Under the pieces are notes generated by a model that saw nothing but the letters and a program-made list of their open reading frames with translations, did no database searches and was not told the DNA's origin. A DNA stretch of 64,000 bases from Amoebophrya sp. A120 (taxonomy: Eukaryota; Protista; Dinoflagellata): NCBI GenBank assembly GCA_905178155.1, contig CAJINV010000010.1:1819182-1883181 (forward strand), in the 5' to 3' direction. A program made the translations under genes and the position numbers. Within the stretch, counting starts at the first letter, position 1. Each line of letters begins with the position of its first letter. Shown piece by piece: positions 577 to 63,828 of this stretch.

Positions 577-3500
577 CTACACCTCTACCCTCGCCAATCG
601 CGTATGCCAGCCGTGGGCAGCAAAATACTTCTCCATCAGTTCCTCCGCGGCTGCCTTGTACCCTGAAGCCGCTTTGTCACCACTCAATTTCGCCGCGTGC
701 GCAAGCAACTTCACCTGCAAACGCGAAAACGCAAATTTTTCTTCGTTCATCCCCGGGATCGTATCCAAGAAAAAAAATTGCGTTTGTGAGGCAGAAATGA
801 ATGCAGAACAGAACTACACGACGACGACACTTTTCGTGCAAGACAGCCCCTGCCCCAGACTCCTCTTTTCTTCATCACATGTGGTTACTTTAAAACATAG
901 GCTAGCTACGCTTTTCACAGAACAAGTTTGTCATGCTGTTCTTGCTGTCAGCCCAGTAAGAGCGTTACACTAGCACAGTTCATTTTTCTTGGATAAACGG
1001 GGCCAGGGAAGGTTTTCGGGGGCTTCTGTTCCAGCCAGTGGCCGGGTCTGAAGGACGAAGAAGCTTTCGGCTTTGGCACTTGATGTTGCGCGGAGTTATT
1101 CAGAACGGAGGTGGATGCTGCTGCTGCACCAATACGTCCTCGTGGAGCTGGTGCACCTCCACCACCTGCTGTCGTTCTTGGAACTATCTTGTCGGTGAGC
1201 AAAACATTCCGCAGTATGTCGGGTTGCAAATGCTGTTTCCGGAACCTCCGTGCTTGGTTCAAAAACTTGGTCGGGCGGATTCTCGAGAGAGAGGTAGTGC
1301 TGGCGGAGTTTGCTTTAGTACTATAATTCGTTGTGGAATTTATTTGGTGAAGATGCTGGTCGTGCTGCTCCAGAGCGGGCTCGTGGAGGTGCACGACAAG
1401 GCTGTCGCTGGTGTCACCCTCCACCATCTCCACCGCAAGATGCGCAAAGTCTTCCAGAAACCCGGTAATTCTCGGCACCGGGGTTGCGAAGTACATGTCT
1501 TCAAAGACCCGCTTCGCGTGGATATTGTGGCGACTGATCGAAGGAGTTGTCAGCTCCCCAAGGCTATGCATTTTTGCAAAAGTCCCGCAATCGTAGTGAT
1601 TGCAGTCATGGATGACAGATCTATTTTTGTACGCTAACCAGCAACATTACAAATTCCATTTTTCACGCTGACCAAATTTGTAATGCGAGGATTTGAACTT
1701 CTACTAGTACGATACTTTTGCAGTGGATAAGCTTCGTCCATCTCCAGGTCTAGATGATCCAGAAAAATCTTCCCCTCCGCCCCAAAAATCCCCCGCAGGA
1801 ATCCTTCCGGCAAGAGCCGCAGGGGTAGGAAAAGAAGATGCTTGCGCTTCTCCTGCGTCAGTTTCTGTTTCGCTTTCAGGAGCGTGGCTGTTTTGCCGAT
1901 GTTTGTCATGTCGCCAAACAAGCTGGCTGTGCGTGACGGAGAAGCAGAGTCGTCTTGTTGTGCTGGTCCTTGCTGGTCAATCGTTACCATTTCGGAGATC
2001 GCGGAAGAAGAAAACGGACTTCCCGCCCTCAAGAAATGCTCCTTGTCCTTCCTTGTTGTGTTCCCTATCGCTTTATCAAATGTAAAAATGTCTGGGTGTG
2101 GAAGATTCTGAGCCTTGTCATGCATGTTTTGCATGGGCCGCAATGTCTGTGATGCACGCCCTAGCATCACAGATTTTTTGAGGGCTTCGCGATGCCTATT
2201 CCGCATGACAAATGCCCTCTCCGCGTACCAAAAATTACATTCCCTTTGCTGCTCATGCAATACAGATTTTTTTGGAATCCAAATTCAGCATCACAAGTTG
2301 CATTCTTCCAGACCCAGACATTTTTACATTTGATAGACTTGCGCCAACGACTCTGCTGGATGGGGCTCCAGTAACCTCCGGATGTCGTGTATGAAAGTGC
2401 ACAAATCCCGCCCCCCCTCATTTGTCATGCAAAATCCCAAATGCAGGCTCTGCCTCTTGGCTCTGTTTGCATGACAAGCTCTGGTAGCTCAAATAGCACT
2501 ACACAACTCCAGTGTCAAAAGATTAACATTTGCCATGCAGAACCGAAACTCTTGCTGATGCTTGTATTGCCGTTCATGCTACACAAATGCGGGCGAGGGG
2601 GAGTTGTGCACTGTCACATCGTGCGAGAGGTCTTCCCGATTAACCCCGAGTTTGCTGGTTTGCGAGTCGAAATTCAAGTCCTTGAAGAGCGCCTGAGTCT
2701 TGTTCCCGATGGCGTTTGGATATGAATCCGCAGACGCGTGGTCGTCCTATCGTACTACTAGTAGAAACTGCGATACAAACTTCTTCAGCATTACGAGTTT
2801 GCCATGCTGATTTAGCTTTAAGAAAAAATAATTTTATGATGCATGATTGTGATTCTAGTACGAGTACGATGCCACATAAATTGCTGCGCCGGATATTGGA
2901 ACGCCTTTGCCAAAATGCCGCCCCGGGATCATCACGTAGTCTTCGAGGGCTTTTTCGTGTGTATCCTATGTAAAACAAACGTCCCCACCCCACAGTTGTC
3001 ATGCAGATTTGCATCTACAGGAACATCTGCAATGCGCATCCGCATGAGAGGACTTTGTAGTGATGTTTATGAGATTTGTAATGCTGTGAACAGGATGAGC
3101 ATGCGTCTTTGTGATGCGGCTGTCCTTGACAAGCCCGACTATACTACAGATGGAAACTTGTCATGCATAACTCCCAAAACTTAGAGATTTGTGTTGGAGA
3201 TTTACCAACTTCACTATGGTGTCGGCGGGACGTTTTTTCACAGGATAGTGTGGTTCCCGGTCCAGTGCAAAAACTCCGCTGTCCATGTTTTTCTCCGCTT
3301 GGAATGAGTCGATCACTCGAGCATCACCAGATAGATCACCCGGCGCTTGTCCTGCCCGTAGTCGAGGGCCTGCAATCGCAGTTTGCTCGCTGTAGAGGTC
3401 CTCTGTTGCCCGAATATGATGTCCTCGTGTAGTTTTTAGCGTGACAACTGCACGGTCGCGATCTGGTCGTCCTGACGAAGTTTTTGTTGCAGGGTCTTCT

Positions 3501-6500
3501 GCGTGGTGCGGAACACCAGCAGACTTAGCAAACAAATTCTTGTCGTTCATCCAGAGGAGAGGGCTGGTGGTCCGCTTGTTTATGACCACTTCCCTGGTGG
3601 ATCGTTGTTCATGAGACTGGTCAAGAACTACATCCGTATTTTTCGCATCAGCAACTGCAGGCTCAGCGCCTCTGCTTTTGCTTTTTCCCCCTGCTGGTGT
3701 TCTTGCTGTAGTTGGTGTTGGTTTTATTGCCGCCTCGACGAGGCTGCTTTTTTTGTGGCGATGATGCACTTGGAGCTGCTCCGTACTGGTTCTACTACTT
3801 GTTGTACTTTTTGCAACATCTCCAAACATCAGCTCGGCACCTCGTCCAGCATCTTCTCGTAATCCAAGCAAGTCGGCTTGTGTCAACAAGAAGCTGGTGC
3901 CCCCGTTCTTGCCGGGCGCACCAGATCTTCTCGTAGCTCTAGCTGCACCTCCTCCGGCTACGACGACGCCATCCACAAACCCACGTGATTTAGCTGCAGA
4001 AGAAGAAGTAGGAGAAACAACTCCTGCTCCTCCGAATCGATTGTTTCTACTGTCATCTTCTACTCCACGCGGGTCGTCGTCGTGGTGGAGGTCGAGAAGA
4101 AATTTCTTCTCGACGCGGCTTCTCAACTCCAGACCGCGATCGATCCTGCCTTCCCCGTATGAGTTGCAAAAGTGTCCGGGTCTGGAAGATTCTAAACTTG
4201 TAATGCTGTCTCTGGATTCTAAAAAAAATTGTATTGCATGACAAGCAAGAGGGCTCCAGTTTGTGCTACGCGGAGAGGGCATTTCTCATGCGGTAGAGGC
4301 CTCACAAAGTCCTGTAAATATCTGCGATGCTAGGGAATGCATCACAGACGTCATGGATCATTCAAAATATGCATGACAAAACTCAGAATCTTCCAGACCC
4401 AGACATTTTTGCAGTTGATACTCCGTCTTCGCCTTTCCCTTCCTGTTTCATCACATCGAAGTAGGATTGGTAAGAGCCTGGCTATGCAAGACAAATTTCC
4501 CGCACATGTACAAGATGCATCAAAAATTTCCCCAATTTGGAGCTTGAAGCTTGTCATGCTAAACCAGGATCGAGGCCAAGTTTTGCCATGCAGAAACCGC
4601 ATTTTTACGTGTACAGGAAATTTACTGTGGATACTGGTGTCTTTGGATTGGGCAACCGGATGTCCTCGTCAAAATCGTCGTCGTCTTCAGGTTATGCATT
4701 GCAAAAGTATAATCGTCGTACAACCAGCCGCAATTGCGTTCACGACTTCGCTCAGCACGGGGAATTGCCTACGATGGAACAAATTCATTTCATCTGTCAA
4801 GCATGATTGCAACTCCCACGAGCAGAAGTACGATAAAATTTTGCACAGGATAGCAATACACCTTCTCCTTCTGCGCTTTGCTTGTCGTTGTAGAAAAGCA
4901 GCGGCGTCCCAGCAGCGGCCTTGGCACTTCTGGCGTTCTTGGCGGAAGCGTCGTTCTTGCTCGGTTTGGTATCCTCTACACCGCCTTCCCCGACCAGCAA
5001 CCGCTGCCCGTCTTGGGAAGTAGAGGTAGCACTAACATGATTGCTAGTAGATGATGACTCTAGAAGAAATAACTTCTCGCCGATGATTTTTTGGCTCAGC
5101 TTCCAGTCAAGTTGACTGCCGTTCTGAAAAATCGCGGGCATCTTCAGGTGGTGCGGGTTTTTGTTGGAAGGCAGAGACGAGAAAGAAGCAGATGAAGAAG
5201 CTGTAGTTCTTGATGCGCCACTTTCATGACTGGTCGCGTTCTTATTCCCCGACACGCCACCTTCTAGCCGTTTCAGTAGGTACTTTTTCAAGTGCTCTGA
5301 CATCACAGAGGACAGCCTTCCCAGGCCCCACGTCACAATCGCGCGAAACCACCTGCTCGGGCCCGACTGCACGTAGTCGTGCGGGTTCGGGATAGTTTTG
5401 CTAGCATGGAGTTCTTTTGGAAAGTTGTAGGATAGTTGACGTAGTTGCGTCTGCTCTGATGTATCATCTTCCCGCTGCGAGTTCTTCTCCTCTTCGGGGT
5501 TGATGTTCGAGAAGAGCGAGCTATGTCCAGCCGCATCCACTTCTTGCAACGGCACTTCGACGTCCGCGATGCAGGATTGGAAGTCCAGAAGAAACAACCA
5601 CACCCGCAAAATTTGGAGTGCGTACCAGGCAATCGGGGTGGTTGTTGTGCCAAAGGACGGTGAGTTGATGTCCTCGCCAGGGTCCATTTTTTCGGAAGAT
5701 GAATTTGTCGTACTCGATATAGTTTCCGTGGTATCGTGCCCATATCTTCCAGCGTTTATTTGGCTTTTTTTTTCATCATCGTCGTCGTGCGCCAACCATT
5801 TCTCCAACACAGCCAAAACGTGCAGCTCGACTCTGACGAATTGCAGACAGTAAAACGCCACAACTTCTTATGACAGTGCACAACTCCCCTTCTCCCTCAT
5901 TTGTATAGCATGAACAGCAATACAAGCATCAGCAATAGTGCCGGTTTTGAATGACAAATGTACACTGGAGCGTGGTGCTATTTGAACTACCAAAACTTGT
6001 CACGCAAACAGTGCCACAAGGCAGCGACTGGATTCGGGGTTTTGCATGACAAACGAGGGGAGGGGGAGTTGCGCACTGTCACACTTCTTCCAGCAAGTCT
6101 TCGCATCCGATCTGCAATTCCAACAAAAAACGTTTCTCCAACGTTTCCAGGAGGTCACGAAGACGAAATGGGGAGTGGAAAAGATCATGGGCGGCGGGAT
6201 AATCTGCACCTCGCGACGACGAGGAGGAGGACCGCTGGTCTGCCTGTTTGAAGGGCTCTTTGTTCGGTAGCTTTCGAGCGTACGTATCCAGGCTCCGACG
6301 GCGGCGGGCAGAGGAACTTTCATTAAACAAGCCCCCCTCGGTCAACACCTCCCCACCTTTTTCCTCATCGTCCCGCTCGTCATCTGTGACAAGCAGCGCC
6401 AATATGATACTGCACAACCCCCCCTCCACCTCATTTGGAATGGCACAAATAGCAATACAAGCGTCAGCAAGAATGCAGGTTTTGCATAACAAATTCATTC

Positions 6501-7497
6501 ACTCACATTTGTACTGCTGTTTGAGCTGCAGCCAGAACTTGTCATGCAAAAAGTGCCAGGAGGCAAAGGATGCATTTGGTACTTTGCATGACAAACGACG
6601 GGATGAGGGGAGCAGGTTGTGCACTCTCATAGCCAACACAGAGTTGAGCAAAGCCAGCCGATCCTCGACGGAGTGGGCCTCCGTGTGGTACTTCTTCGTG
6701 TATTCCAAGGCGTAGTGGAGATGCTCGGTCGGGAAATCTGCCTCCACGCCGAAGCCCCGCTTCTTCGCGATGTTCGCCCTGATTCTAGCCGCAACCGCGT
6801 GCACGTCCAGGGCCGGCGCGGATGATGAAGAAGAAGTTCTTCGCCTCGCAGGTGCGGAAATAAATCCGCACCTCTCGTGGACTTGAGACGTCACGTCAAT
6901 GTGGTCACGACTGGTGATATGCATTGCAAAAGCATCGTACTAGTATAAATAACTGCATCACAAATTATATTTTCCTCAAGAACAAATAGGGAATTTGTCA
7001 TGCTATATCAGGTGGAAAGTATAGATTTGTCATGTATGACGAGTGCGATACTTTTGCAATGCATAGGCGAGCAAAGTTGCTGATGTTCTCATTCCCGTTT
7101 GCAGCTGGCCTCCGCGTGTTTTCTTTCCTGCCGACAACTGCGGACGAGAGAAGACGTCAAGGAAAAGTGTTTCGGCGTTGAGAGTGTCATCACCTTCACC
7201 GCCCCATCGACCTACTAGTAGAACTGGGTCAAGAACAGGAGCATCGCCGAGAGCAGGAGCAGCCCCTTCGATTCCCATATTCGTTCCCGCCGATGTTCCT
7301 GCTACGTCGTGGAGCCGCCCGAGCACTACTTCGCGGAGCCTCCTTTCCAACCTTGCTTCGCGCTGCTGGTCAAATATTGGGCCGGGATGGTGTAGGAGAT
7401 GCCACGCACCAGCATATTTGCTCCCGCCCCCGCCCGCTGCGTGATGCCGTTCTTCTTCTGGTTCGAACTTGAACAGTGCGGGCCCGAAAAAGTTCAC
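577..7497 (-). CDS. Large low-complexity hypothetical protein, 13 exons split by 12 introner introns
   Basis: All 12 junctions join in frame when element+5 nt is removed; stop at 577. No ATG at the 5' end, so it is probably continuous with 7862-9272 via GT-AG intron(s) (GTAAGT donor at 7920, TAG acceptor at 7509). Confidence 0.75.
762..995. mobile_element. Introner (singleton family)
   Basis: TIR TATCCAAGAAAAA/TTTTTCTTGGATA; TSD decayed; frame restored. Confidence 0.75.
1565..1729. mobile_element. Introner family B
   Basis: TIR TAT..TGCAAAAGT; TSD decayed; frame restored. Confidence 0.75.
2074..2335. mobile_element. Introner family A
   Basis: TIR TATCAAATGTAAAAATGTCTGGGT; TSD CGCTT/GACTT. 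Confidence 0.9.
2390..2618. mobile_element. Introner family C
   Basis: TATGAAAGTGCACAA...TTGTGCACTGTCACA; perfect TSD TCGTG. Confidence 0.9.
2721..2895. mobile_element. Introner family B (degenerate)
   Basis: TAT...ATA ends; perfect TSD TTGGA. Confidence 0.8.
2962..3247. mobile_element. Introner family D
   Basis: TATCCT..AAACGTCCC TIR; perfect TSD GTGTG. Confidence 0.9.
4158..4420. mobile_element. Introner family A
   Basis: Family A TIR; TSD CCCCG/CTCCG. Confidence 0.9.
4483..4633. mobile_element. Introner (singleton family)
   Basis: TAT..AAATTTCC imperfect TIR; TSD CTGGC/CTGGT; frame restored. Confidence 0.75.
4693..4852. mobile_element. Introner family B
   Basis: TATGCATTGCAAAAGTAT...GCACAGGATA; TSD decayed; frame restored. 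Confidence 0.8.
5869..6083. mobile_element. Introner family C
   Basis: Family C TIR with ACA end; perfect TSD CTTCT. Confidence 0.9.
6403..6631. mobile_element. Introner family C
   Basis: Family C TIR; perfect TSD GCCAA. Confidence 0.9.
6918..7065. mobile_element. Introner family B
   Basis: TIR TATGCATTGCAAAAG; TSD GGTGA/GGCGA. Confidence 0.9.
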
Positions 7498-7861
7498 CCA
7501 CCAAGCGTCTATACTGATGAAAAGAATAAAGTGCCCACTTCTATTTTAGGGCCGGAAACAAATTTAGTACTTAAAAAACATGTGTAGAAGTTGCGGCCTT
7601 GATCCGTGTGGCATCAGCACGAGCCAGGTCTTCGTCTTTTATTTTTTGTCTTTGATCCTTGTCCAGCATGACAAACGTTTTGTTTTTGATGGTTCCGACC
7701 TCCCTAATCTTGTTCGAACAAGCTTCTACCCTTCATCGTTTTTACGAACTGCAGTAATCTACATGGAATAGCCGAAAAACTGCTGCTCTTGTTGCTGTGT
7801 AGCCCGCGTTCACACAGAGCATTCTCCGACGCCAACTGGAACTGACACTGAGCAACATGCA

Positions 7862-9272
7862 CTATTCATGCACTATTGATAGATAATTTGTTCTCCTGAT
7901 TGTTGTATGGGTGCACTTACTTTTGTGTCGGATAGCGTTGATACGTCGAAGAAAGTCTGCCTGGGTTATAAACATGCTTCTTGTCATCTCCTCCTCCTGC
8001 TCGAGAAAGTCACTGGGTGGGGCGTCGTCGGGAAAAATTGCATCTTCATCGGTGGAAATCTGCCCCCCGTGCCGCTTCTGGCTGTTTGATATTTCCCGTT
8101 GATGCAGCTTGTTCTGCTCCTGGCCGCTGGTGTTACCAACCACTCGAGCAGGTGGCAACGCCCTCATTTTTCCAGTTTTCGTACTAGTTTCCTTGGTCTT
8201 CAAGAAGACGACCTTTCGGCACAGGACGCTGCAGAGGGCGCGTATGGATGTGTCAGAGTTGAAATCGACAAAGTTGAAATAATTTGTCATGCATAAAATG
8301 GATGCCAGTTGGGACCCAGTTTCCAAGTCAGGCAAGACAAATTTCGGTGGTCCCTAAGTCCACTTTGTCATGCTGTTTAGGCAAAGAAGAGCGATTCTCT
8401 CATGCTACTTTAGCAGCTCGAGCTGTAACCCCAAACAGGCTTACAATCGGCCTCACTTGCCTGCTCTGCAACACACGTGCCTCAGGTCATGCATTTTATG
8501 CATTACAAATTATTTCAACTTTCACGATTTCAAACCTGACACTTCCATAGCGCGTGGTAGGAAGTCCTGGATATTAAATTGCGGGGTTAGCTGGTGTATC
8601 CTGTGCAAAAGTATCGTATTCGTATAAATGCAAGTCTTGCATTACAAATCTTTGTCTTAAGGCAAATCTGCATTACAAATTTTCTTTCTCATGCTGAAGA
8701 AATTTGTAATGCATTTATACGAGTACGATACTTTTGCAATTCATATGGTGGAGCGAAGAAGTAGAGTTTGTCATTGTCTTCTGTCCCGGCGAATAAGAAG
8801 AAGTTGAAATAAACAACGCTCGCGGCGACCAAACGTGTCGGTCCAGATTCAAGCAAAGCTTTTCCGCGTGGGAAAACGTGAACACCGTGCCATATCAAAT
8901 GCAAATGTGTCTGGGTCTGGAGGACGATGGCGAGACTTGTCATGCAGGCTTTCCATGGCCCATGAGGTCTGGCATAGAGCATCTAGCATGACAGATTCTG
9001 TGAGATCTCTATCATGCCTCTCCCGTGTGAGAAACTGCCTCTATACTTGTTCAGAAGCGGACAACTTTTATTGCTGACCATCAAAGAACGCAAATTTTTG
9101 CACGATCCAGACTTGGCACGACAAGTTGCAACCTTCCAGACCCAGACATAGAATTTGTAATGCATATCCCACCACCCACAGCCAAATCCCAGAGCTGCAA
9201 TTTCTCTTCCGGAAGCAGGGGCCGGCCGATGGCCGCCTGGAGCGAAGCGTGACGGGAAGACGAGAAAGACAT
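7862..9272 (-). CDS. Hypothetical protein (MSFSSSRHASLQ...), 3 introner introns; probably the 5' part of the 577-7497 gene
   Basis: ATG at 9272; removing the three elements +5 nt gives one continuous frame (..AVGGGTVFTFSHAEK..LTPQFNIQDFLPRALCSVLCRK..). Confidence 0.7.
8243..8549. mobile_element. Introner family F (diverged)
   Basis: TIR TATGGAWGTGTCAG; perfect TSD GCGCG. Confidence 0.9.
8597..8745. mobile_element. Introner family B
   Basis: TATCCTGTGCAAAAGTATCG; perfect TSD TGGTG. Confidence 0.92.
8893..9166. mobile_element. Introner family A
   Basis: Family A TIR; TSD TGCCA/TCCCA. Confidence 0.9.
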
Positions 9273-10530
9273 GTTTTTTCAGAATGACGGCCCGTCTAGC
9301 TGTAAGAATAAGTAGACAGTTCTGGTGGAGAGATCCTGTTCTTCAAGGCCACACTTGTTGATGATGAAGATGAAGATGGTGCTCAATATAATTACAACAG
9401 TGGTCGTCACAACTACTACTTCATCGTCACATCGACGTGAATCTCCTCGTTCATCGCTATCACTGCACTCTACCACATACGAAAAACAAGACCGTGAGGC
9501 GCTCGTGAAGGGCATGGTGGTACAGTAGGTCGTCCCAACGGTAGGTACTAACAATAGAGCGGCAACCATTACGACATCACCATAACAAGACACATTATGT
9601 GTCTTGTTATGGTGACATCAACAACTACTACACACGACGGCCAACTCCTCCCATGCATCACTAGCCACCTCCCGCCCACATCACAACTGGCTATTTATTC
9701 TTTTTTTTATCTGCTAGTGGCATGTGTGTCCTCTCTCGCAACACAAATATAGACTTCTAGAGTGGCTGTAGCACGACCAGTTTTCTGCGAAGCAAAAGTG
9801 CCAACTGACGACCTCGACCTGGTGACGGTGACCGTGACATGCTATACAATCGGGGGAAAATACTTCATCACCGAACGTTTTATACGTAAACGTAGAAAAC
9901 TGTTGATAAGGGACATTATCTTGCTCTTGCTCAGCGACCGCGACGACATAATTTCAACAGGAGTCTTCATCTGACAACAGAATGACGACCACGGAAATCT
10001 TCTTGCTGAACACAAATACAGAAAAACCCTGCGTCGAATCTGGGTCGGCTCGTTTGCTTTTCCAGCACCCGTACCTGACGAAGCAAGCTCCTAGGGCCAG
10101 AGAAGCACGTCTTCACCATCTATCATGATGGTCAAAGCAACTTTTTCAATATTTGTGTCGCGTGGTACAAAGTGATTCTTGTGAAAAAAGGAATGCAAAT
10201 TATATCATCGGTTTTTTCTCCAGAGGGAGCCCCCGCGGGGGGTGGGCGATCTAAGTAGCACTATCACGACAACGAACGTGTGTGTCCACCAGAAGGCCTC
10301 CGTAATTTTGCTCCTCTTTATTTTGCAGTTGTCGTGGCTTATTGTAATTGTTCCCAACACTTCTCACAGCGTGGTAGTTTCATCCTCACAGGAGTGTGGG
10401 CTTTCTTCTCCCGAATTCTGGTAGTTCCTCGAGCAGTATTGTTGTATTTCGCGGAGTAAGTAGTCTCAATAAGCAGTAGTCCTCGTTGCAAAAAATTGTT
10501 GAATCCGCTCTGTTTATTTGCTCAAAATCT

Positions 10531-11702
10531 TCAAATCCGCCCGCCGTCTTGTCGCTGGGTCGTCGACGGAAAGCCGCCGCCTGTCTGTTCTACCGCAACG
10601 TCAATCAAGTCGTCGTCGTGCACGACTATGCAGTGCAAATATGTAGTCTCAGTAGTCACTTGTGGAAGATGAAGCAAGCAGATGGTTGCCATGACCACAT
10701 CGACTTCTCTCGTCGAGGATGTTTGTAATACATGGCATCTCCTAGCATCAAAGATCTTCTTCCACCGAAGGCTTGTTTTAATCTCTTTTTTAATGCGTAC
10801 TATCCGGGTCGTGCATGAGAAACGCGCCTTCCATGTTGCAGAAGCCAGGCTGTTTCTGTATCTCTTGCTGACACAAGAATACAGATTTTTGGCATTGTCC
10901 AAAGCTAGCATCACAAGTTGAAGTTTGCTCTCATCTTCCAGCACCAGATTATACATTTGCATTGCATAAAGCCGAGCGCATCCGGGGTGTCGTTTTCGCC
11001 CACCCGCTCCCCATCGACCATAAAACGCACCTCGCCAATGCGCAGGCTATGAGACTGCACAACCAGTTTACCTCTTCCTCCGTTGTCATGCAGAAACGCA
11101 ATGATGTATGACGATTTTTTCGTAAGTACCCGGCGGCTACGTGCTGTTTGTCATGCAGATGCTATATACTGAACTGATACTGATTCTGTCTGTGTTTCGC
11201 TTGTTCGTGCCTGCTTCTTCAGATGACATCTTGATGGTTTGAGGGGAGAGATGAAACTACTTCTACTTGTGCACTTTCATAGGTGCCGATCCGCTGGCAG
11301 TAGGCCTCCATCAGTTTTTTCAAAGTCGAATGCTTCTTGATCTTGAAGGACACTTCACCGCCCGTACTGTTCCGCACCCGCAGCTTATGAGAGTGCACAA
11401 CTCCACCTTCTCCTGATTTGTATTGCATGAACAGCAATACAAACACGAGCACACGTGGAGCCTGTGGATGACGAATTGACATTATTCGTGCGCCTAGTGT
11501 AGTACTGTCTGGGGTTGTTCCGGATGCAAAGAATACAACAAGGAAGCACTTGGATTTGGGCTTTTGCATGACAAATGATGCGGAGGGGGACGAGTTGTGC
11601 ACTCCCATACAGCTGAATGTGCGTGGGCCCGCCGGCGCCAGCGTCCGGGTTTTCCGGGGCGGCGGCCGCCGCGGGAGAACCAGAGTCCTGGTCGTCGGCC
11701 AT
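10531..11702 (-). CDS. SUMO: Small ubiquitin-like modifier (SUMO), 4 exons
   Basis: Spliced product ..HIQLRVRNSTGGEVSFKIKKHSTLKKLMEAYCQRIG..RIGEVRFMVDGERVGENDTPDALG..DDDLIDVAVEQTGG matches SUMO/Smt3 motifs including QTGG. Confidence 0.93.
10627..10968. mobile_element. Introner family A (degenerate), SUMO intron 3
   Basis: TATGCARTGCAAAT TIR; TSD decayed; SUMO frame restored. Confidence 0.8.
11048..11281. mobile_element. Introner family C (degenerate), SUMO intron 2
   Basis: TATGARA.TGCACAA TIR; TSD partly decayed; SUMO frame restored. Confidence 0.8.
11386..11609. mobile_element. Introner family C, SUMO intron 1
   Basis: Family C TIR; perfect TSD CAGCT. Confidence 0.92.
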
Positions 11703-11925
11703 TTTTTTTTGGTTTTTTTGATGAGGGCGCAAGGGTAGCTATGTATGACGATATGGAGCAACTGGATGAAACGAAACTAGGTGGAGATTATATCACTGTC
11801 GTTACTATAATCTCCTCCAGAAAAGTGGTGGTCCTGAGGAAGGTTTGTGGAAATCAAAATCGTAGTAGGCGCAATACGAAAGTTGTTTTATTTCAAGTTG
11901 ATATAATACCACCTCTTCCGGGTAG

Positions 11926-12483
11926 TCATTTTGGAAGATATTTCGAAGTCGGTTCAAGTTTGTGAAAGGGAAATTTGTCGTTCGTTTTGAGATGAGGAAG
12001 AAGCTGCACGAGCAAGATCTTCAAAATGATACCGCACGCAAGGGCAAGGACGTAGAGCTTCAGCTTGCATATGCAAGCGCTTTTGCTCCTTTTGCGTTTT
12101 CTTTTCATGCTTTTCCTTTTGGGTTTGACTTTGTATAAATTCATCGTGTGTTGTTGAGCAGGATGCTTACTTTGCAGAGAGAAACACAATTTCACCGTTT
12201 GTCGCAAGAGCATTTGTGTTTGTCCTCCCGTCTCCCTATTTCGGTTTTCAAGGTCGTCGTGGACGACCGTTTTTTGGACCATCAAATTCTTGAAAGATCC
12301 TTCCACTTTGTTTCCGTCAAGATATATCTTCAAGCTGTTTTGTTCATCTTCGCATGCAGACATGATGGAAAATCTTCGAACACAACAAACTACAGAATCA
12401 GAATGGACCGGTTCCTTGTCGGACTGACTTTGGTTTATAGCCGAGGGCCAGCACATGACCAGGATCATGACTGCAAGAGCCAC
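11926..12483 (-). CDS. Possible hypothetical ORF
   Basis: 185-aa ORF on the gene-bearing strand; no recognisable motif. Confidence 0.2.
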   Translation of the reverse strand: MALAVMILVMCWPSAINQSQSDKEPVHSDSVVCCVRRFSIMSACEDEQNSLKIYLDGNKVEGSFKNLMVQKTVVHDDLENRNRETGGQTQMLLRQTVKLCFSLQSKHPAQQHTMNLYKVKPKRKSMKRKRKRSKSACICKLKLYVLALACGIILKILLVQLLPHLKTNDKFPFHKLEPTSKYLPK

Positions 12484-24597: not shown

Positions 24598-25946
24598 ACG
24601 TAGGTCCTCTCCTCTTCCTGCATACCAGCGTCGGTTCGCTGCTGTTGCGAAGTCAGCAGCTGGTTAACGCCAGCTGCAAGACCAAGGGAGCGCGATAAAT
24701 ACATTTGTTTTTTTTTGAAGCTTGATGATCCACGACCGACTTGTTTCTATATTTCGATCCTGATTTTTTTCATTCTGAACCATGGTTGCGGCAGATCATG
24801 ATTTTTTATTTTGCGACTCATCGTGATGGTGAAACTGAAAATGCTCCACCTCACAAGGATCTTCTTCGTTCGGATCATTCTTTATTTTGACCAGAGAGGA
24901 AGTGGGCTTGTTCAGCTTCACGGAATAAAATTTCGATATATACAATCACAGTTGTCATCATCTGCAGCGGACAAAAGCACTACTGTGCGGCACTGCGTCC
25001 GCCGCAGGCTGCGGCTTCAAACCGCCAGCAAGAATGATGTAGTCTTTTTACTTATGCGATCACTCATGATGTTCATTTTGTTCCACATGGTGCCGATGCA
25101 TCTTCTCGAAAAAGAGCTCCAGGTTTTTTTTGCCCCGTTTGTAGTGGGAGAAGATGACAAATTATGAAGCCGAGAGTTCTTGCAGCACATGTTAGATCCT
25201 GCGACAGGGATACACGACACCATATTTTTTCTACCAGCACAACTCGTACGATTATATGTGTGTCTATTCTGGTAAGCAGATCGTGCTGGCATGTGGCTCT
25301 CTACTTGTGGTAAGTTGATGTACTAGCGAAAATTCATACTCATAGCAGCGGGCTGAAATAAATAAATGGGTGTCTTATCATCACGTGTTGCGGGGGCTAC
25401 GGCGGGAACAAGAACAACTTGATAGGTTGTTACTACGAAAAAAGAATGCTAGTACAGTTCCGGGAAGGTTGCCTATCAGTCTGAATCTTCATACATCTTC
25501 ATCGATATCAATCATATCGACTCGCGACCACGAATGGACCAAAACATATCCTCGAGGGCAGGGTCAAGGATGAAAATGGTATATTAGTTGTAGCTTGCTA
25601 GTTGTAGCAGCTAGCATCGGTGGGTAGTTAGATGGAAGCTAGAAGTAGGTGGGAGGATGAAGAGATCGCTCGCCAAAGGGTCAATTTCAGAATAAAACCG
25701 GGAATATGTGCCGCTGGTGGCGCTACTCGCAGGAGTCCACAAAACATCAAAAGGATTGTACAAAGCAGCAAAACAAAGGACCACCTCCAAGCAGCGCGCA
25801 CTACCATAGATAGGGAGTACCGTTCTCTAACAGCATTTCCATCCAAAATTTTCTATCTCCGCACATTATTGTACAGCGCCTGCTGCTGCTGCACTTGCGG
25901 TGGAACTCCAGCTCCAGCACCCTGCTCCGGTCCGCCCCCCTGTGAT

Positions 25947-28900
25947 TCATTCCTGCGGCGGCGGCCCGGGTTTCTCCGGTTCCGGTGGCGCTTCCGGTTC
26001 CCCGACCTCAGGTGTATGAACTGCAAAAGTATCGCACTCGTATAAATGCATTACAAACTTCCCCAGCATGAGAAAGAAAATTTGTCATGCGGATTTACCT
26101 TAGAAAAAAACTTTGTAATGCAAGACTTGCATTTATACGAGTACGATACTTTTGCACAGGATAAGGTGGTGGCGGCGGCAAATCTTGGGTCCAGTTGTCC
26201 GCAGCCCCTTTGGGGACGGAGGGCTTTTTGTACCCACCGGCGTTGTATCAACTGCAAAAGTGTCTGGGTCTGGAAGATTGCAACTCGTCATGCTAAATCT
26301 GAAGCATGCAAAAATCTGTGTTGCATGATTACCAAACGTCGCCCAGTTTTGACCAAGTCGGGAGGGAGTTTCTCATGCAGGATAGGCATGAGAGAGATCG
26401 CGCAGAATCTGTCATGCTAGGTCCTGCATTCCAGACCTCCTGGGTCATGGAAAAGCTGCATGACAAAGCGCGCATTCTTCCAGACCCAGACATTTACATT
26501 TGATACGTTGAAGGAGATCTGCTTCACGTTCGTTTCCGGCATGTTGCTCCCCGCGACAAAGTATGGATTGCAAAACAAGTATCGCACTCGTATAAACGCA
26601 TTACTCAGCATGAGACTTGAAATTTGTAATGCGGATTTACCTTTAAGAAAAAAATTTGTATTGCATGATTGCCATTACTACGAGTACGATATTTTTGCAG
26701 TGCATACAAAGACCGGCTCGAAATTTTGCCACTGGGGGTTGTGCTTCTCCAGCAACAATTCCTCGTCCAATCCAGCTCCATTTTTATTCTGTGCCTCGAA
26801 CGAGTTGCTCCCGTACAATTTCCGCTTTTGTAAAACCCGTTTCCGCTGTCTTTCCGCCGCGATGCGCGCACCGTGGCTCGCCTGGCACATATCGTACGAA
26901 AAAAGTGTTACAGTTACACCTTTGTAGTGGATTCTGCAACACAAACTTGCTCTGCACTGCAGAGAAAACTTGCAATGCAGAGATCCTGAAGGAAAACACG
27001 CACAAAACGAGGCTCGCATGCCTCTCCAGCATGAGAGAGGCTGTCTGTCTTGCTTGGTCTGCAACACAATGTGTAACTGTAGCACTTTTTTCCTTGCATA
27101 ACACATCGCTTGGAACACGTTACCCGGGATCACATGCTTCGCGGTTTGTCGTATTGCGAGGGAAAATCCCCCCTCCCCAACATATTGCAAAGGACATTTG
27201 TGATGCTGGATTTGCGTACACAAATCGACTTGTATTGCTAGAAGGCCGAAAGACGCACTCGTGGCCTGAATTGCAGGCGATTTGTCATGCTGTTTACCGA
27301 CTTCCAGTTGCCTCCTGTCATGCTGAAGACGCAAGGCTGTCCCGCGCCAGCCAGCACAACAGTCGTCCGCACCTTTTGCTTTCTAGCATGACAACATGAT
27401 TTGCAGTAGCAAATCATGCTACACAAATGCCCGTTTTAGTGTGGGGAGGGGGAATTTTTCACTTCGATATGTCTATCCCCGTTTGTCATATCATCGTCTA
27501 GCTCGTAGAGAAACGCCACGTTCGCCAATGCTTTCTGGTTTGCCAACTTCCCACTTGCCGGGACGACGAATTTCACGAAACCCGCGGCGGAATAGCGGTA
27601 CAAAACCCCCCGTCGGCTGGTTTTTCCCTTGCCCGGCGCTAGGTTCAAGGCCTGCTCGATCTGCTGATAGGTCCGGTCGACGATTTTCGGGTCACAAATA
27701 ATTCCGTACACCTCCATGATATCTTTTTCGATGATATCACAGGAAAAAGCGTCAACGCTAACGGGATTTGTGATGCAGGACCGCATCAAAAAAGGTGCCT
27801 CCTAAATTTGTATTGCATAGCATGCGTTACAGGAAACATTTGTCATGCATAGCTGCAAACTCTGGAAACCGTTAAGGTTAACACTTTTTTGTTTGATAGA
27901 TGATCTTCCTGATCCCACGGGCGTGCGTGCGAAATTTCCCGCACATCTTGAACCAGCGGTAGCAGCCCGGGGCGCGGGTGATGGCGATCAGCTGGGAGAA
28001 AATTTCGGTCAGCACTGGTTTCAGGTTTCCCTGCTGCTTCTGCAGTTGAAACGAGGGATTTTGCTTCATCACGGTCATCATGGCACGGAGGGTGGATAAA
28101 TGCACCAAATTCGCTTCAGCCGACTTGTCATCCGTCGAGTCGATGCAGACAAACATTTCCTGCACGAAATTCGACACCAAGGCTTCGATCAGAACCGGTT
28201 GTAGATCCGGTTTGTCCTTCAGTAATTGCAACGCAATCTCCGGGTGGAGAGCCTTCGCGACCCCATACTGCATGGACATTTTGTCCCACCCTCCGTTTCG
28301 CTGCACTTCCTTCTCGACGTGCTTGTGCTCGAATTGCCCCAATTGCACGCAGTTGCTATCCGGCACCATGTGGAAGACCTTCGCCCGTTGCAATTTGTCG
28401 CAAAAAGCGGGTTTTTTCATGGAAAAGACCCGCAGCTCCCCGGTAAACCACTGGGACCCGCAGCCGCCCTGCTTCACCTTCGTCAACAACGGCTGGTGGT
28501 TGGACGGGTCGTGGCGCAGCTGCTTCAACTCGGACCGGTGCGCTGTCGGTAGGGCGTCGACGGCAACGATGGTGTAGGTGAGATTCGAGAAGTGGTTGTA
28601 GAGGTAATCTTCCAACTTCTTCGCCTCTTCCAAAAGAAACGACGACCGCTCGTGGTAGCTGGGCTGCTTGTTCGCGGCACAGCAGGACTGGGAAATCTCA
28701 ATTTCGATCGCTTCATATTCCTGCATCGGATCTAAGTGTTCCTCGTTCCAATAAGGCGCGTATGGATTGCAAATATGTCTGGGTCTGTAATGCTAAAAGT
28801 GAATCATAGACGCACTGCAATACGCAGCTATGCATGACAAATAATTTGGCTGCCATGTGGTCTTACGTATTCCGCATGGCAAACTACGTTTTTGCATGAC

Positions 28901-31900
28901 AGGCAAGAGGACTTTTTCGTGCCTATGCAGCACAGATTCTCGTCGAGCCATGCCAGACAAGCATGACAAACTTGCACTCTCCCAGACCCAGACATTTTTG
29001 CATTTGATAGAGCACTCAGCATGTTGATTTGGGAGGCGGTTTGATCTGAGGTCTTGTTGTTCAAACTGGAGACGAACCGCATCTGGCTGCCGCGAGCCTC
29101 AATCACAGATGAGTTATGTGTTCCATACATTGTCACTGCAGTTGCAAAATTTCCCGTGGTCGCACCGTAATTGATATTTGGGTTGTTGTTAACATTTGGC
29201 GCTCGCGCTCCTCCTACGTGGTCAAGCATCACCAAATACACTCCTTCAATCGGCGCCATTCTGTCTTCGCCACTGCTTTGACCCGAAACGTTGCCCTGCA
29301 CACGCAAAAACCGCTGCACAACACCCGTCTTCTGCTGCCCACCGCCGACATTCACAAGCACTTTATCCCCTCGGCGGAACACGTTTTTGCGTTCCTTCTG
29401 GTAGTGCTTTATCGAGCTGTAGGACTTCGTCCTGACCGCGTTTTCCAAGTTCCCGAAGGTGGAAGACACGTTGTGTCTCAACGCCGTCAGCGACGGGCGG
29501 TCCTGGAACGGCTGACTGCTCTTTTTGTCGGACACGATCAAATAACTAGGCCCTCCTGCAGGTCTACTACTGGAGAGATCTACGCTGGAGGGTAACGTGG
29601 CGCCAGTACCTCGCGAGGACGCTACTGCTCCTGCTCCACTGCCCGGTTGGTAGCACCGCACAGCGGACCCCTGTACCGCAAGGTCGGAGGGTGCGGCGAA
29701 CTTATTCCGGTCGATCTCGAATTCCCGGTCCAAAACGACGATGAGCGACCCGGGGAGGAAGTCCCCAACCGTCGGCTCTTTCTTGAACAAAGGGTTAGTT
29801 GCGTCGCCGACGTTGTTGTTCAGGTTGCTATCTACTTCCATGCCCTCGACCCCGGTGTTGAAATCCTTGATCCTATCCGCTGGGGAAAAGGACCCGTAGC
29901 GGGAAACCGAGTAAACGCTCGTCACCAAACCGAATTCCACGGCGAGGAGCTTCATCCACAGATCGAATTCGTATTGGGTGGTGGAACTGGAAGTTACCAG
30001 AATTGCCTGCGTGTACTTGGTCGGGAGAAAGGTCGGCTCGTATAACAGTGCACAACTCCCCCTCCTCCTCATTTGCATGGCATGAACAGCAATACAAAGG
30101 CCTGCACACTTGGAGCCTATGCATGAGAAATTTATGTCACGTGGTGTAGTACTGTTTGGGCTTCCGGAGTTTGTCATGCAAACCGTGCCACAGGGAAGCA
30201 CTCGGATTTGGGGTTTTGCATGACAAACGAGGGGGAGGGGGAGTTGATGTGCCCTTTCATAGCTCGCACCGCAAGTTCATCATCCTCTTCTGAATCAGCC
30301 GCCACGACTTCTGGTACAAATCTTCCAAATAGATATGCGCCCGCAGCTCCCCATACGCGTACGCGGGGACGGATTTCGAAAGCTTGATTTTCAACTTCAG
30401 CGTCGACAGCGACTGGTTCGGCTGGATCATGGGGACCACGAAGAAAACCCCGTCACTGATACCGTCATTCAACGGCGCCATCTCCGGTGCGTTGCAGTGC
30501 TGGTATAAAACGTTCTGCGCTGATGTGATGTTCTTTTCGTTCGACAGGTCGAGTAACACTTCTCCCTTCTCCGCATCGTAGAAAACGACCTGATTTGGGA
30601 ACTCCTGGTCGGGTTTGTCCTGTGGGAAAATGGTGTCGGTCTTGTTGTTATGCATTGCAAAAGTATCGTACTAGTATGAATTGCAATACAAATTTCCTCA
30701 GCATGAGAAATGAAATTTGTAATGCGGATTTAACTTGAGAAAGAAATTTGTAATGCATGAATGGGATTACTACGAGGACGATATTTTTGCACAGGATAGT
30801 TGTCTTTCGCCGTTTGGTCCGTTTCCTTTTCGTTGTTCAGACTGTGATTCGCTAACTTGTGGCCGAGAAAGCTAAAGCCGATATTTCCGTTGTGGATCGT
30901 CGTGTTTTTCGCCAAAAACACCTTCACGCCGATCTGCCGCCCGCCTAAGGCGAAGCCCATCGGGAGAGAGGAGATGTTTTTCAACGGGAATTGAATCACG
31001 GTCGACTCCCCCGCGGCCAGGCTGTTCAAACCAAGAAACCCGTTTGCGTTCTGCAGGGGGAACTGGACTGTCATGAGCTGGATGGAAGATTCTTGAAACT
31101 GGTCGAAGTTCTTCTGGTACTTCGTACTCTGGCTGTGATAGTTATCCGTTTCGATGCCCAACTGCCTCCCTTGTAATTTCACCTCTTCCTGAACTATCGC
31201 CGGGTCGAAGTCCGAATTATCCAGTTTGTCCATTTCTATCATTCCGATTTGGTACCGCAGTTCGCCGTCCACGGACACGGCGGTGTTGCTGTCAATCGCC
31301 ATACCCCGCACGGTGAAAACCGCATCCTGGACGGATTGCTCGTTCGCCCCGGCGAGAACCCACTTCCCGGGGATCAACTGCATCATCTGCCGCTGCATGC
31401 TCGGGGTCGGCATTCCCCCGACATTTTTCACCGAGATGTTGTCGACGAAACAGCACTATGGATTGCAAATATGTCTGGGTCTGGAAGATGCCATGCTGTT
31501 TTTGCATGACACAGAAGGTCTGGCATGGTATCCCTAGCTGCATCACAGATTCTATTAAGAAGGTCCTGCAATGCATAGTCCGCATGACAAATCCCGCACT
31601 TTGGTGACAAGAAGTGGGCATGATCTTTTGCTGCCTATGCATGAGAGATTTTTCTTTGTTCTGAAATGCGCATCACAAGTTCGGATCCTTCCAGACCCAG
31701 TAGACATTTTTGCAATCCATAAGCACTGGCCAAACTCGAACACGTTGTCCGGTAAAGTTTGCTATCCTGTGCAAAAGTACTCGCATTGCAATGATGCATT
31801 ACAAATTTTTTTCTTCAGGTAAATCCGCATTACAAATTTTACTTCTCATGCTGAGAAAATTTGTAATGCATTTATACGAGTGCGATACTTTTGCAATGCA

Positions 31901-33668
31901 TATTTGTCCGGATTTGTCGTTGTAATGCCCGTATTCCTTGATTTGAAAGTCGTTCGCCTCCAGGTGGAACCTGCTGTCAAAGACCATTTTCTGCCCGTTC
32001 ACCGCGGATTCGATAATCAATTCATATTTCCCTTGCCCCCCGTTCGGGCCGAAGGCCAGCGGGACGCACGGGGTCAACCCCCGACGGCCGCGAATGCCGG
32101 GAAACCCGCCCGGGTTGCTGTATCACAGGAAAAAGTGTCAACGTTAACGAAATTTGTGATGCAGCAACGCATCAAAAAGCGTATCAGAATTTGTAATGTA
32201 TAACATGCATATTGGGCAACATTTGTGATGCATGACTGCCATCTGTGAAAATCGCTAACGTTAACGCATTTTCTTGTGATATGCTGTGGTGGTCGGTCAC
32301 CGTGCGGGTTTGGCGGTTGCCGTTGGAATCCGTGTATGCATTGCAAATGTGTGTGGGTCTGGAAACTTGTGATGCAAGGAAGGGAATTATAGTGAGCTCC
32401 CTGCAATGCGCTGCCAAGCATGACAAGTTTTGATCATGGTCCTGAGTTGCGTACTCCGCATAAGAAACTACGTTTCTGCATGACAGGAAGGCGGAGCTCT
32501 TTGCGGCCACGCAATACAGAGCTCAGAGGCATGCCCGATTAGCATGACAAATCTCGCAGTCTCCCAGACCCAGACATATTTGCATTTGATACCGTGTAGC
32601 CCTCGGTGCGGGAAGAGGTCCAGTGGTAGGAACTACCACCCATTCCGCCCATGCCGCCGGGACCTGGAGTATAAATGTGTGCATCGATACTGCATTTGCG
32701 GTGTCAAGTTCGTGTTCATCTTTTGCGTCACGCTAACAACCAAATTGTTGGAGCGCGGCACAGCACTTCTTGATTCCTTTTTTGTCATGCTCATGCGGTC
32801 TGTGTTTGGGCTTGGGGAGCACGGCATTCTATTTCTGGTTCTACTGTTCTACTGTCATGCTCATAGAAATTGAAATAAACCTCAAGCGCAAGAACGCTGA
32901 TCAACACGTTTTACCTCCCGGCCCATGGAACCCGGGCTGTCCGCCCGGCCCGCCGACTACCAACACACTTGGGTCCCGCGCACGGTCCACAGACATCATC
33001 AAATACGCATCCTGCTCGTGCACCTTGATCTGCACAATCCCGCCAGATCCCCCGGGAGCACCGTGGGACCCGAAACCCCCGTCCCCGCCGTCTCCCCCAT
33101 CGCCACCGTTGGTTCCGGTTGTGTAGCGGGTGGCGTTCCGTCCCCACGCGCCGTCGCCACCGGGACCGCCCGGACCGCCGGCACTGTGATGTTTATTTGG
33201 TAGTTCTTGGGAAATCATATGAAGAAGAAAGGTGGCGATTCTGATTCATCGTGTAGTCTAAGTATACAGTAACTTCTTCTAGAAGATCTTTGCGAAATGA
33301 ACAAGTCCAGACTTTCTCTCTTGCTTCAAAAATTACCCTCCGTGCCCCCCGGGTCCGCCGATCGCCTGGCACTCAATTTTCTGCAACTGCTCCACGGAAA
33401 TCGTCTCGTCCACATTCCCGGCCTGCGAGGCCGCCTGCACCCGCACCACCTGCTCCTCCGAGCCCTGCGCAGTGACTCCGGAAGAAAGCCACACGGCGAC
33501 GCCGCCGGCCGGTTGCCCCTGGACCGCGGGGCCGGCGTCGCCACCACGGTGGCCGCGGTGGCCGTGCTTCATGAAGCCCAGCGGCATCCCTGGGTAGCCG
33601 GGGGCGCCGGGGAGCCCGGGAAGGGCGTCCGGGCCCTTCGCACCGTTGGACGCGAAAGTGAAGGACAT
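25947..33668 (-). CDS. Large uncharacterised protein with Gly-rich N-terminus (..NATRYTTGTNGGDGGDGG.., VKNVGGMPTP) and Pro-rich C-terminus; 13 introner + 2 GT-AG introns
   Basis: Exon ORFs flank each element; the junctions I translated are in frame; GT-AG introns at 33184-33336 and 32664-32914; TGA at 25947. Confidence 0.8.
26015..26163. mobile_element. Introner family B
   Basis: Perfect TSD AGGTG; empty site at ~19231. Confidence 0.95.
26246..26505. mobile_element. Introner family A
   Basis: Perfect TSD CGTTG; empty site at ~19308. Confidence 0.95.
26562..26706. mobile_element. Introner family B
   Basis: Perfect TSD CAAAG. Confidence 0.92.
26890..27100. mobile_element. Introner (singleton family)
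   Basis: TIR TAT..GAAAAAAGTGYTACAGTTACAC; TSD GCACA/ACACA. Confidence 0.88.
27152..27469. mobile_element. Introner family E (diverged)
   Basis: AAAATCCCCCTCCCC subterminal IR; TSD TGTCG/TGTCT. Confidence 0.88.
27735..27898. mobile_element. Introner family G
   Basis: TATCACAGGAAAAAG end; perfect TSD GATGA. Confidence 0.88.
28761..29009. mobile_element. Introner family A
   Basis: Family A TIR; TSD GCGCG/GAGCA. Confidence 0.88.
30041..30261. mobile_element. Introner family C
   Basis: Perfect TSD GCTCG. Confidence 0.92.
30649..30798. mobile_element. Introner family B
   Basis: Perfect TSD GTTGT. Confidence 0.92.
31457..31721. mobile_element. Introner family A
   Basis: TIR TATGGATTGCAAA; perfect TSD AGCAC. 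Confidence 0.92.
31763..31902. mobile_element. Introner family B
   Basis: TSD TTTGC/TTTGT. Confidence 0.9.
32121..32281. mobile_element. Introner family G
   Basis: TIR TATCACARGAAAA; perfect TSD TGCTG. Confidence 0.92.
32335..32591. mobile_element. Introner family A
   Basis: Perfect TSD CCGTG. Confidence 0.92.
32664..32914 (-). other. Canonical GT-AG intron
   Basis: G|GTAAAA...TCCAG|GT; frame preserved. Confidence 0.75.
33184..33336 (-). other. Canonical GT-AG intron
   Basis: GG|GTAATT...CACAG|T; frame preserved. Confidence 0.75.
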
Positions 33669-36600: not shown

Positions 36601-36962
36601 TACTCGTACTTAGCTTGTTTAAAATTAAAGGTGCATTTCAACATTATCATGTGTTCCTTTTCAGAAGTTCTCTGTAGTTTAGAAATTCGCTTTCGAAAGT
36701 AGTTGACCTCTTATTTCGATTTCCCCTAATATATACCGTGTCATCTTTCGGATTGAATATTCCATTTAGTCAAGGTTATCAAGAAATCACCCACACGAGA
36801 ACAGAGGTGCTCCTGTCGTAATCGCGCAGATAGAAGCCAACGGAGTGATGCTCCTGGGCCCGCACGACTACAGACGCAAGAAATGCCTCTTGGACCACAA
36901 CTCCACCGCCGGTGGATGAGTGATGTTGACTAAATTCATAATCGACGAACAGAACTGGTCAC

Positions 36963-63349: not shown

Positions 63350-63828
63350 CGAGTTCGACGCGAATGGGTTGTCCGCACTGGTCGCGTTGCTGTTGCTAAT
63401 TCCGGCGAATCCACCGCCACCGCCACCACCGCTCATCTGTCGACCCCAAGAACCGTATGAAAGCCTCAGAATGGAAACCCTCAAAGTGGAAATACAAATA
63501 ATTTGTGATGCATGAAATGCAAGGCAAAAAAGATTCTATTGCAGAGGACACAATGGAGACCGACTGTTGTCCTGCTAGGGGTTCAGAATTGGGCTGCTGA
63601 TTAGCACGAGAGAAGGGCACCCCTTTGCCCACCTAGCATGACAGACATGCTTTGAGTGCCCGGAAAATTTGTCATGCGCCAATTAAAAATGGCGCTTCAA
63701 CTGGAGTCGTTTTTTTGCATTGCAAATTATTTTCACTTTTAGGATTTCCAACCTGAGGCTTTCATACACCGCCGCTGCTTGATCCACCGCCACCACCGCC
63801 CCACTGAGGAAGCTTACTCACGTTGTTG
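63350..63828 (-). CDS. Partial Gly-rich protein (internal/3' exons; gene continues beyond the window)
   Basis: ..KLPQWGGGGGGSSSGG / WGRQMSGGGGGGGFAGISNSN.. join in frame across an introner; gene end not resolved. Confidence 0.5.
63456..63766. mobile_element. Introner family F (inverted relative to 61828-62131)
   Basis: TSD AACCG/CACCG. Confidence 0.92.

Follow-up and report, generated by a model that had tools for sequence, protein, structure and literature searches.

Introduction

The introners of the dinoflagellate Amoebophrya sp. A120 were described by Farhat et al. (Farhat 2021, PMC7789003); statements on this source and on the others cited below refer to the passages accessible to us. 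More than 60% of the A120 introns were reported to be non-canonical, and the mechanism of their removal was left open. The introner repeats begin with TAT, seven variable letters and then AAA, accompanied by direct repeats of 3–5 nucleotides (nt), a hairpin and ends other than GT-AG, and 15% of the canonical introns have the same repeat layout. In the figure legends the splice sites are described as ‘variable’ with respect to the hairpin, with an ‘unknown’ border (Fig. 3), while the repeats are located 1–5 nt from the splice sites (Fig. S23); four direct-repeat letters upstream of the 5' end are also remarked on. In the accessible text, ‘orientation’ (four uses in the main text and three in the supplement) refers only to gene blocks. 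In Polarella glacialis and Aureococcus anophagefferens (Huff et al. 2016, as cited there), introners make introns in either orientation (bioRxiv 10.1101/2020.10.14.339549). The method of Gozashti (2022, PMC9860276) allowed opposite-orientation matches, and the passages found in Gozashti (2025, PMC12130899) treat the A120 introners without making the point of two-way splicing. Here we analyse a 64,000-nt stretch of the A120 genome (assembly GCA_905178155.1, contig CAJINV010000010.1, positions 1,819,182 to 1,883,181), referred to as the window, in which introners of both orientations are removed from messenger RNA (mRNA), together with one target copy and in a single cut register that follows the transcript.

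Introners of the window

The inserts of the window are the already published A120 introners (Farhat 2021, PMC7789003); the published A120 gene models P0001 and P0003 are 100% identical to window exons in a protein comparison. The elements were catalogued by scanning for 5-nt repeats that flank inverted TAT…ATA ends and then completing the set by BLAST, which gave 53 elements of 115–342 bp. A published gene model added three more, and the end of the window truncates a further one. TAT and ATA are both exact in 48 of the 53 elements. The terminal inverted repeat (TIR) starts with TAT, continues with variable letters and has mostly A at positions 11–14, and 33 of 53 have a perfect 5-nt target duplication. 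The elements recur in families, nine of which were compared for orientation, and Rfam returned no matches. In the two stretches examined for RNA-contig joints, 20 of the joints listed fall on the 30 catalogued elements, with ends that are not GT-AG.

Removal in both orientations

A preliminary description made from the sequence had named two pairs of reverse-complementary introners in minus-strand genes and concluded that introners work in either orientation. The pairs themselves were confirmed: 8597–8745 is identical to the reverse complement of 26015–26163 at 135 of 149 positions without gaps, and 61828–62131 to that of 63456–63766 in 273 of 311 alignment columns. When 30 nt were trimmed from each end, elements 26015 and 8597 (named, as below, by their first position) agreed at 0.88 reversed against 0.63 in the same sense, so the match is not just one of terminal repeats. 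All four hosts are also on the minus strand, as stated there. Element 8597 lies in P0003 and 61828 in P0001, and 63456 has the relative P0004 (zf-C2HC), which continues unbroken across the site. The host of 26015 has a frame of 1333 codons after removal and is covered by one contig of 6023 nt and another of 5998 nt, which also drop CT..AC introns, equivalent to GT-AG on the minus strand.

Contig joints were examined at 6800–26799 (X1) and 26700–39800 (X1, X2 and X3). X1–X3 were labelled as RNA by guess, and their RNA nature is backed by the loss of canonical introns: since two CT..AC introns (Table 1) are missing from the same contigs, these represent spliced minus-strand transcripts. In the DNA-like run X5, all 12 listed splice joints are absent, and the sequence is unspliced across 32567–38117. 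X2 and X3 come from one sample and X1–X3 from one study, with a possible overlap with the data behind the published models; the borders of P0001 and P0003 derive from transcript alignments according to the published method (PMC7789003). As contigs and published models may share data, they are not counted as independent lines. Among the joints listed, X1 contigs have joints at 10 of the 16 catalogued elements in 6800–26799, and the six elements without a listed joint (6918, 8243, 8597, 8893, 17361 and 23939) reflect insufficient cover and are not counter-evidence. In 26700–39800, joints were found at at least 10 of the 14 catalogued elements among the joints listed, with 38093, 38791, 38971 and 39354 lying outside these and hence unscored. 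Joints from repeat to repeat were set aside (5 of 15 entries in the first stretch; 3 of 15, from X5, among those listed in the second). Of the four named copies, 8597 and 26015 fall in the stretches examined; 26015 has a direct RNA joint (26009>26164, 154 nt, X1 contig, depth 31), while none was present for 8597 among those listed from the X1 contigs.

Both orientations are removed from mRNA in A120. X1, X2 and X3 each include a contig from which 31763, with the orientation of 8597, and 30649, with that of 26015, are both absent. Family B occurs 7:6 in the two orientations, with RNA joints for one and three copies and published-model junctions for two and two more. RNA joints in both orientations were also found for A1 (15570 vs 26246) and D (14943 vs 27152). 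On the minority side of family C, the sole RNA joint belongs to 11048, with a weak family orientation (6.9 bits), and 2390 is spliced in P0003. Two-way splicing, as proposed initially, is therefore borne out by RNA contigs and published models. The near-equal numbers of family B are not found in every family: the A group is skewed 14:3 (p = 0.013), and four of the nine families are one-way (p ~0.02, post hoc). Families E (2962, 24319, 47848 and 58513) and G (27735 and 32121) occur in one orientation only, with arrays of the inner motif described below mostly on the sense strand; the skew of the A group runs the opposite way to these two families.

Removed unit and cut register

All 20 contig joints correspond to the element plus 5 nt, as do 16 junctions in the two published transcript-based models; the removed unit is the element with one 5-nt target copy, not the element alone. 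Its removal opens minus-strand frames of 1333, 1067, 1020, 746, 526 and 495 codons, with up to 13 elements each. Removal of the element with +0, +3, +4 or +6 nt was tried and rejected, the longest new frames being 644–715 codons as opposed to 1333. The restored frames of the preliminary description hold with this correction: introns of 154, 154, 309 and 316 nt (8597, 26015, 61828 and 63456) restore the frame, whereas removing the element coordinates alone leads to a stop within 3–7 codons at 8597, 61828 and 63456 and to a frameshift at 26015. At 63456 the frame is open for 57 codons only when element plus 5 nt is removed; together with the continuity of P0004, this sequence evidence argues for removal at this putative intron.

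Two observations concern the site of 26015. An intron-less paralogue (~90% identical) of three exons of the 25950–33668 gene (compared over 25925–26556) lies at 19151–19344 inside another minus-strand gene and holds a single target copy, i.e., empty sites, at the positions of 26015 and 26246, which suggests a retrocopy or a duplication that preceded the insertions. Furthermore, 26011–26165 would read on the plus strand as a perfect GT-AG intron, the host being on the minus strand; this reading was dropped in view of the minus-strand transcript.

Target copies that differ from each other allow the junction to be located, and k is used here for the number of left-hand target letters that are kept. 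From the RNA joints, k equals 1 at 11048 and is ≤ 1 at 10627 and 28761 and ≥ 1 at 26890; from the published model P0003, it equals 1 at 4693 and is ≤ 1 at 1565 and 2074 and ≤ 2 at 6918 and 762. The only register common to all 36 junctions from RNA and models is k = 1; on the transcript, the intron is 1 nt, the TAT…ATA element and 4 nt. A register tied to the element would give 4 for reversed copies, and the reversed family B copies 6918 and 4693 exclude this mirrored value, 1565 representing the other sense, so the cut goes with the direction in which the gene is transcribed. Of the symmetric signal originally proposed, the TIR stem on both strands and the dispensability of GT and AG remain, but the cut is asymmetric, 1 nt outside the repeat on the 5' side and 4 nt outside on the 3' side, and tied to the transcript.

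The first and the last two intron letters are free, with 37 end-dinucleotide pairs in the 53 elements, and GT-AG ends under the fitted register occur in only 1 of 53; a GT or GC donor combined with an AG acceptor is thus not what defines these introns. Under k = 1, T is found at +2 in 53/53 and A at +3 in 51/53. Both deviations at +3 are A>G at the transcript 5' end. At 2390–2618 and 5869–6083, family C elements of opposite orientations, TGT stands for TAT, in each case at the transcript 5' end. All seven canonical introns examined begin with GTA (two with listed RNA joints, two bounded by contig pieces and three frame-predicted). T and A at +2 and +3 match these donors, and a donor may sit in both ends of the element. 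Donor-like N-T-A letters at both ends would account for two-way splicing within the spliceosome, a reading that draws on two letters, and the earlier claim that no strand-specific donor is needed finds no support in this form, as a donor-like signal may be on both strands. According to Table S4 of Farhat et al., the nine commonest non-canonical classes of A120 all start with N-T, to which aligner bias may contribute, and in strain A25 the classes given start with TT and the repeats with TTA (PMC7789003). On the transcript strand, the last four intron letters of the 53 sites show a slight skew, with T at −2 in 3 (p = 0.008 against exon composition, uncorrected) and G at −1 in 21.

Terminal stem and inner motif

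On the transcript strand, each of the four named elements forms a fold that joins its two ends (z −8.9, −7.8, −10.2 and −5.8), and the stem forms on both strands (z −5.8 to −10.2). The end duplex has a median of −39.7 kcal/mol over the 53 elements, compared with −4.6 to −12.4 kcal/mol in the seven canonical introns, none of which beats shuffled sequences.

Within the elements, an inner motif with the consensus GCATNACAAAT occurs at 11.6 per kb, as opposed to 8.8 per kb in canonical introns and 0.12 per kb in exons, a roughly 100-fold difference between elements and exons. It is equally frequent on both strands (68:74 in elements, 6:5 in canonical introns), and 53 of 121 spacings between neighbours measure 30–33 nt. 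Its T-N-A-C core resembles the branch-site consensus. At a distance of 35–62 nt from the 3' end, this core occurs in 26 of the 53 elements, on the other strand in 23 of 53 and on neither in 7. A branch point at a fixed distance was considered and found unsupported, since the core is equally frequent on both strands and 31457 is spliced without a strong sense-strand motif. The spliced elements include sense-only arrays (11048 and 24319) as well as the antisense-dominated array of 31457. With helical spacing on both strands, GCATNACAAAT is more likely a DNA-level site of the transposase type than an orientation-free branch point. The bidirectional motif that the preliminary description took as part of the splicing signal thus lacks support in that role, as it is also found in canonical introns and is spaced like DNA binding sites. 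In four of the seven canonical introns an outward-pointing copy lies ~31–43 nt from the end, two of the seven have no copy near the end and one has none at all. Canonical introns containing GCATNACAAAT may be decayed introners or may share a marking signal. Table 1 lists the features.

Table 1. Introners, host genes and canonical introns of the window, with positions counted from its first letter; the strand is that of the transcript.
Feature	Position	Strand	Intron or joint	Remarks
Introner, family B	8597–8745	minus	putative intron 8593–8746	149 bp; TAT…ATA TIRs; perfect 5-nt duplication; removed with 5 nt in P0003
Introner, family B	26015–26163	minus	putative intron 26011–26164	opposite orientation to 8597; perfect 5-nt duplication
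Introner, family F	61828–62131	minus	putative intron 61824–62132	304 bp; HCNGP-like gene; removed with 5 nt (309) in P0001
Introner, family F	63456–63766	minus	putative intron 63452–63767	opposite to 61828; 311 bp; target duplication 4/5
Introner, family B	31763–31902		joint 31757>31903	8597 orientation; joint in X1, X2, X3, not X5; interior against 8597: 0.79 same, 0.64 reversed
Introner, family B	30649–30798		joint 30643>30799	26015 orientation; same transcript as 31763; joint in X1, X2, X3
Introner, family B	26562–26706		joint 26555>26706	26015 orientation; loose ends at 26706 in X1–X3
Introner, family B	6918–7065			reverse; orientation 24.8 vs 12.1 bits; spliced in P0003
Introner, old family B copy	4693–4852			reverse (8.3 bits, weak); decayed duplication; fits P0003 protein in one register only
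Introner, family B	1565–1729			8597 orientation; 49.6 vs 6.6 bits; spliced in P0003
Introner	11048–11281		intron 11044–11282; joint 11043>11283	decayed duplication; joint unambiguous; X1 depth 90
Additional TAT…ATA elements	762–995, 2721–2895, 7510–7934			outside first scan; spliced in P0003
Additional TAT…ATA element	63828–64000			truncated at window end
Host gene of 8597	580–8774	minus		published model P0003; 1574 aa; 15 TAT…ATA introners
Host gene of 26015	25950–33668	minus		2 canonical introns; 13 introners from families A, B, C, D, with A and B present both ways
Host gene of 61828		minus		P0001; HCNGP-like; PF07818
Canonical GT-AG intron	32664–32914	minus	joint 32661>32913	CT..AC in X1, X2, X3; GCATNACAAAT present
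Canonical GT-AG intron	33184–33336	minus	joint 33183>33337	CT..AC in X2, X3
Canonical GT-AG introns	37207–37392, 37610–37767, 38563–38722, 39880–40129, 40263–40380			as 32664–32914, GCATNACAAAT on either strand, often 31–43 nt from end

A different inverted-repeat element is located at 21874–22392, with ~27-bp arms and internal tandem 11-mer arrays in both directions; it is intergenic and differs in type from the TAT…ATA elements. Introners are absent from two long minus-strand frames, 41667–44411, which has a 2OG-Fe(II) oxygenase domain, and 18283–20442.

Possible machineries

On balance, we lean towards introners resembling miniature inverted-repeat transposable elements (MITEs) that are removed with one target copy in either orientation, by cuts 1 nt and 4 nt outside the repeats, likely through an altered U2-type spliceosome. 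Of this, removal both ways, the length of element plus 5 nt and the single register were observed. Either orientation would present N-T-A at the 5' cut, since each end begins with TAT, and this could act as a donor in which +1 is relaxed while T at +2 and A at +3 are kept; pairing of the repeats into a stem would draw the two ends towards each other, and the 3' cut might be set by distance rather than by AG. Nearly all spliceosome proteins and the U2, U4, U5 and U6 RNAs were reported in A120 (PMC7789003), and a U1-70K homologue has been reported in Amoebophrya A25. A U2 spliceosome that handles transposon introns without GT-AG ends in Fritillaria provides a precedent.

Several points weigh against an altered spliceosome. 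Known spliceosomes need G at +1 and AG for docking, and both are free here. The likeness to a donor consists of two letters only, T at +2 could be a matter of chance with ~6 possible registers (~1 in 6 per strain, by our estimate), and +5 differs, being G or C in the introners and A or T in the seven canonical donors. Mismatches in the stem reveal no preference for G-U (55 G-U vs 56 A-C on the transcript strand), and a wobble test by duplex energies was also negative (23 vs 29, p = 0.92); neither result points to selection for RNA pairing over and above the symmetry of the DNA. The mirror test of the register uses published models and old copies with moderate (6918) or weak (4693) orientation, all hosts of the window lie on one strand, and the contigs demonstrate removal rather than splicing efficiency. 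Finally, U1 small nuclear RNA (snRNA) was undetected in the accessible account of A120 (PMC7789003), which equally speaks for a machine other than the spliceosome.

Such a machine, a non-spliceosomal nuclease with a ligase or a dedicated second complex of the kind proposed for the nonconventional introns of euglenids, would read the same end code as a TAT/ATA-based hairpin and cut 1 and 4 nt outside; we consider this rather unlikely, and it is the closest to the reading of the preliminary description. It would account for element ends free of GT and AG, for a strong stem in both orientations with an end duplex far stronger than in canonical introns and for the splicing of 31457, and the arrangement N1-TAT…ATA-N4 parallels the Euglena code N3-CDG…CH'G-N5-6, for which the authors favour non-spliceosomal factors (PMC12501133). 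However, T at +2 and A at +3 agree with the canonical donors in two strains whose repeats are unrelated, both deviations at +3 are of the kind that GTR donors allow, and the repeat layout in 15% of the A120 canonical introns suggests one system. The argument that working in both directions sets introners apart from spliceosomal introns also fails, as the spliceosomal introners of Polarella and Aureococcus are two-way as well (bioRxiv 2020.10.14.339549). Alternatively, a protein, transposase-derived or other, bound to the TAT ends and to the GCATNACAAAT array with its 31–33-bp spacing could guide co-transcriptional splicing, with the RNA hairpin as a by-product; orientation would be irrelevant because the protein binds double-stranded DNA. 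This would fit a motif that is dense in elements and canonical introns, rare in exons and equal on both strands, the 30–33-nt spacings equivalent to three helical turns of DNA, the missing wobble bias, the copies near the ends of four of the seven canonical introns and the splicing of sense-only and antisense-dominated arrays alike. But the spacings are inherited within families and so non-independent, any MITE would be expected to contain arrays of this kind whether or not they serve in splicing, canonical introns with no copy near the end or none at all exist, and the binding protein is hypothetical. We regard marking at the DNA level as improbable. Taken together as a second, strand-indifferent code N|TAT…ATA-NNNN|, read by a non-spliceosomal machine or set by a DNA-bound protein, these two alternatives are a possibility worth keeping in view, though not the one we expect. 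That the joints do not reflect splicing, and come from DNA of a strain without the inserts or from elimination at the DNA level, is already largely refuted and hardly credible. It draws on X1–X3 being called RNA by guess and on the runs on record as RNA (X8–X10, same species label), which placed 4, 4 and 20 reads across 20 kb, largely in repeats, whereas the same contigs lose canonical GT-AG introns, have no listed letter differences and vary in depth by gene, and X5 has no listed splice joint.

Independence of orientation and the fixed 1 + 4 register turn the ‘variable ends’ into one rule. This rule explains how a high element density is tolerated, as any target in either direction is restored exactly, allows junctions to be re-annotated genome-wide, and gives specific positions at which a relaxed spliceosome can be separated from a new excision system, so that the question of A120 splicing becomes testable. 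Should a second code apply, an insertion in either orientation and any target would be erased without a scar, which would give the euglenid code an independent counterpart and yield a portable seamless intron.

Comparison with known systems

The introner-like elements of Polarella and Aureococcus are likewise DNA transposons with inverted and target repeats, several classes of which are two-way with a bias to one direction; their donors begin with G and their acceptors are AG, supplied by the element or the target site, whereas in the window neither +1 nor the last two letters are constrained (bioRxiv 10.1101/2020.10.14.339549). The non-canonical introns of Fritillaria borealis are likewise transposon-derived, with inverted and target repeats, and are handled by the U2-type spliceosome; they prefer AG-AC or AG-AT ends with a conserved U1, whereas no end dinucleotide is fixed in the window (PMC11282704, PMC13326754). 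The nonconventional introns of Euglena also have a short paired motif at fixed spacers, the longer one 3', as well as direct repeats and a proposed MITE origin (PMC12501133, PMC11282704). Their motif is CDG/CHG with spacers of 3 and 5–6 nt instead of TAT/ATA with 1 and 4 nt, a purine is required behind the 3' cut and circles have been demonstrated; orientation is unmentioned in the passages searched. The window elements share with them paired ends with fixed cut spacers and lack CDG/CHG with 3 and 5–6 nt. We regard the Euglena code as the nearest working analogue.

In the accessible passages of the literature, including PMC11282704, PMC11453091, PMC13326754, PMC12621601 and PMC12787238, there is no statement of two-way splicing in A120 or of the 1 + 4 register; subscription papers, theses and figures may hold one. 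The prior publication of the elements and of algal two-way introners limits the surprise. The window elements and the introners of Farhat et al. share the organism, TAT repeats, direct repeats, hairpin and non-GT-AG ends, and the remark on four direct-repeat nucleotides is compatible with the register found here (PMC7789003). In contrast to the ‘variable’ sites reported there, both orientations are spliced in one fixed register. While the elements, and two-way introners elsewhere, had been published, the two-way removal in A120 documented by RNA contigs and the rule for its cuts are what the present analysis adds.

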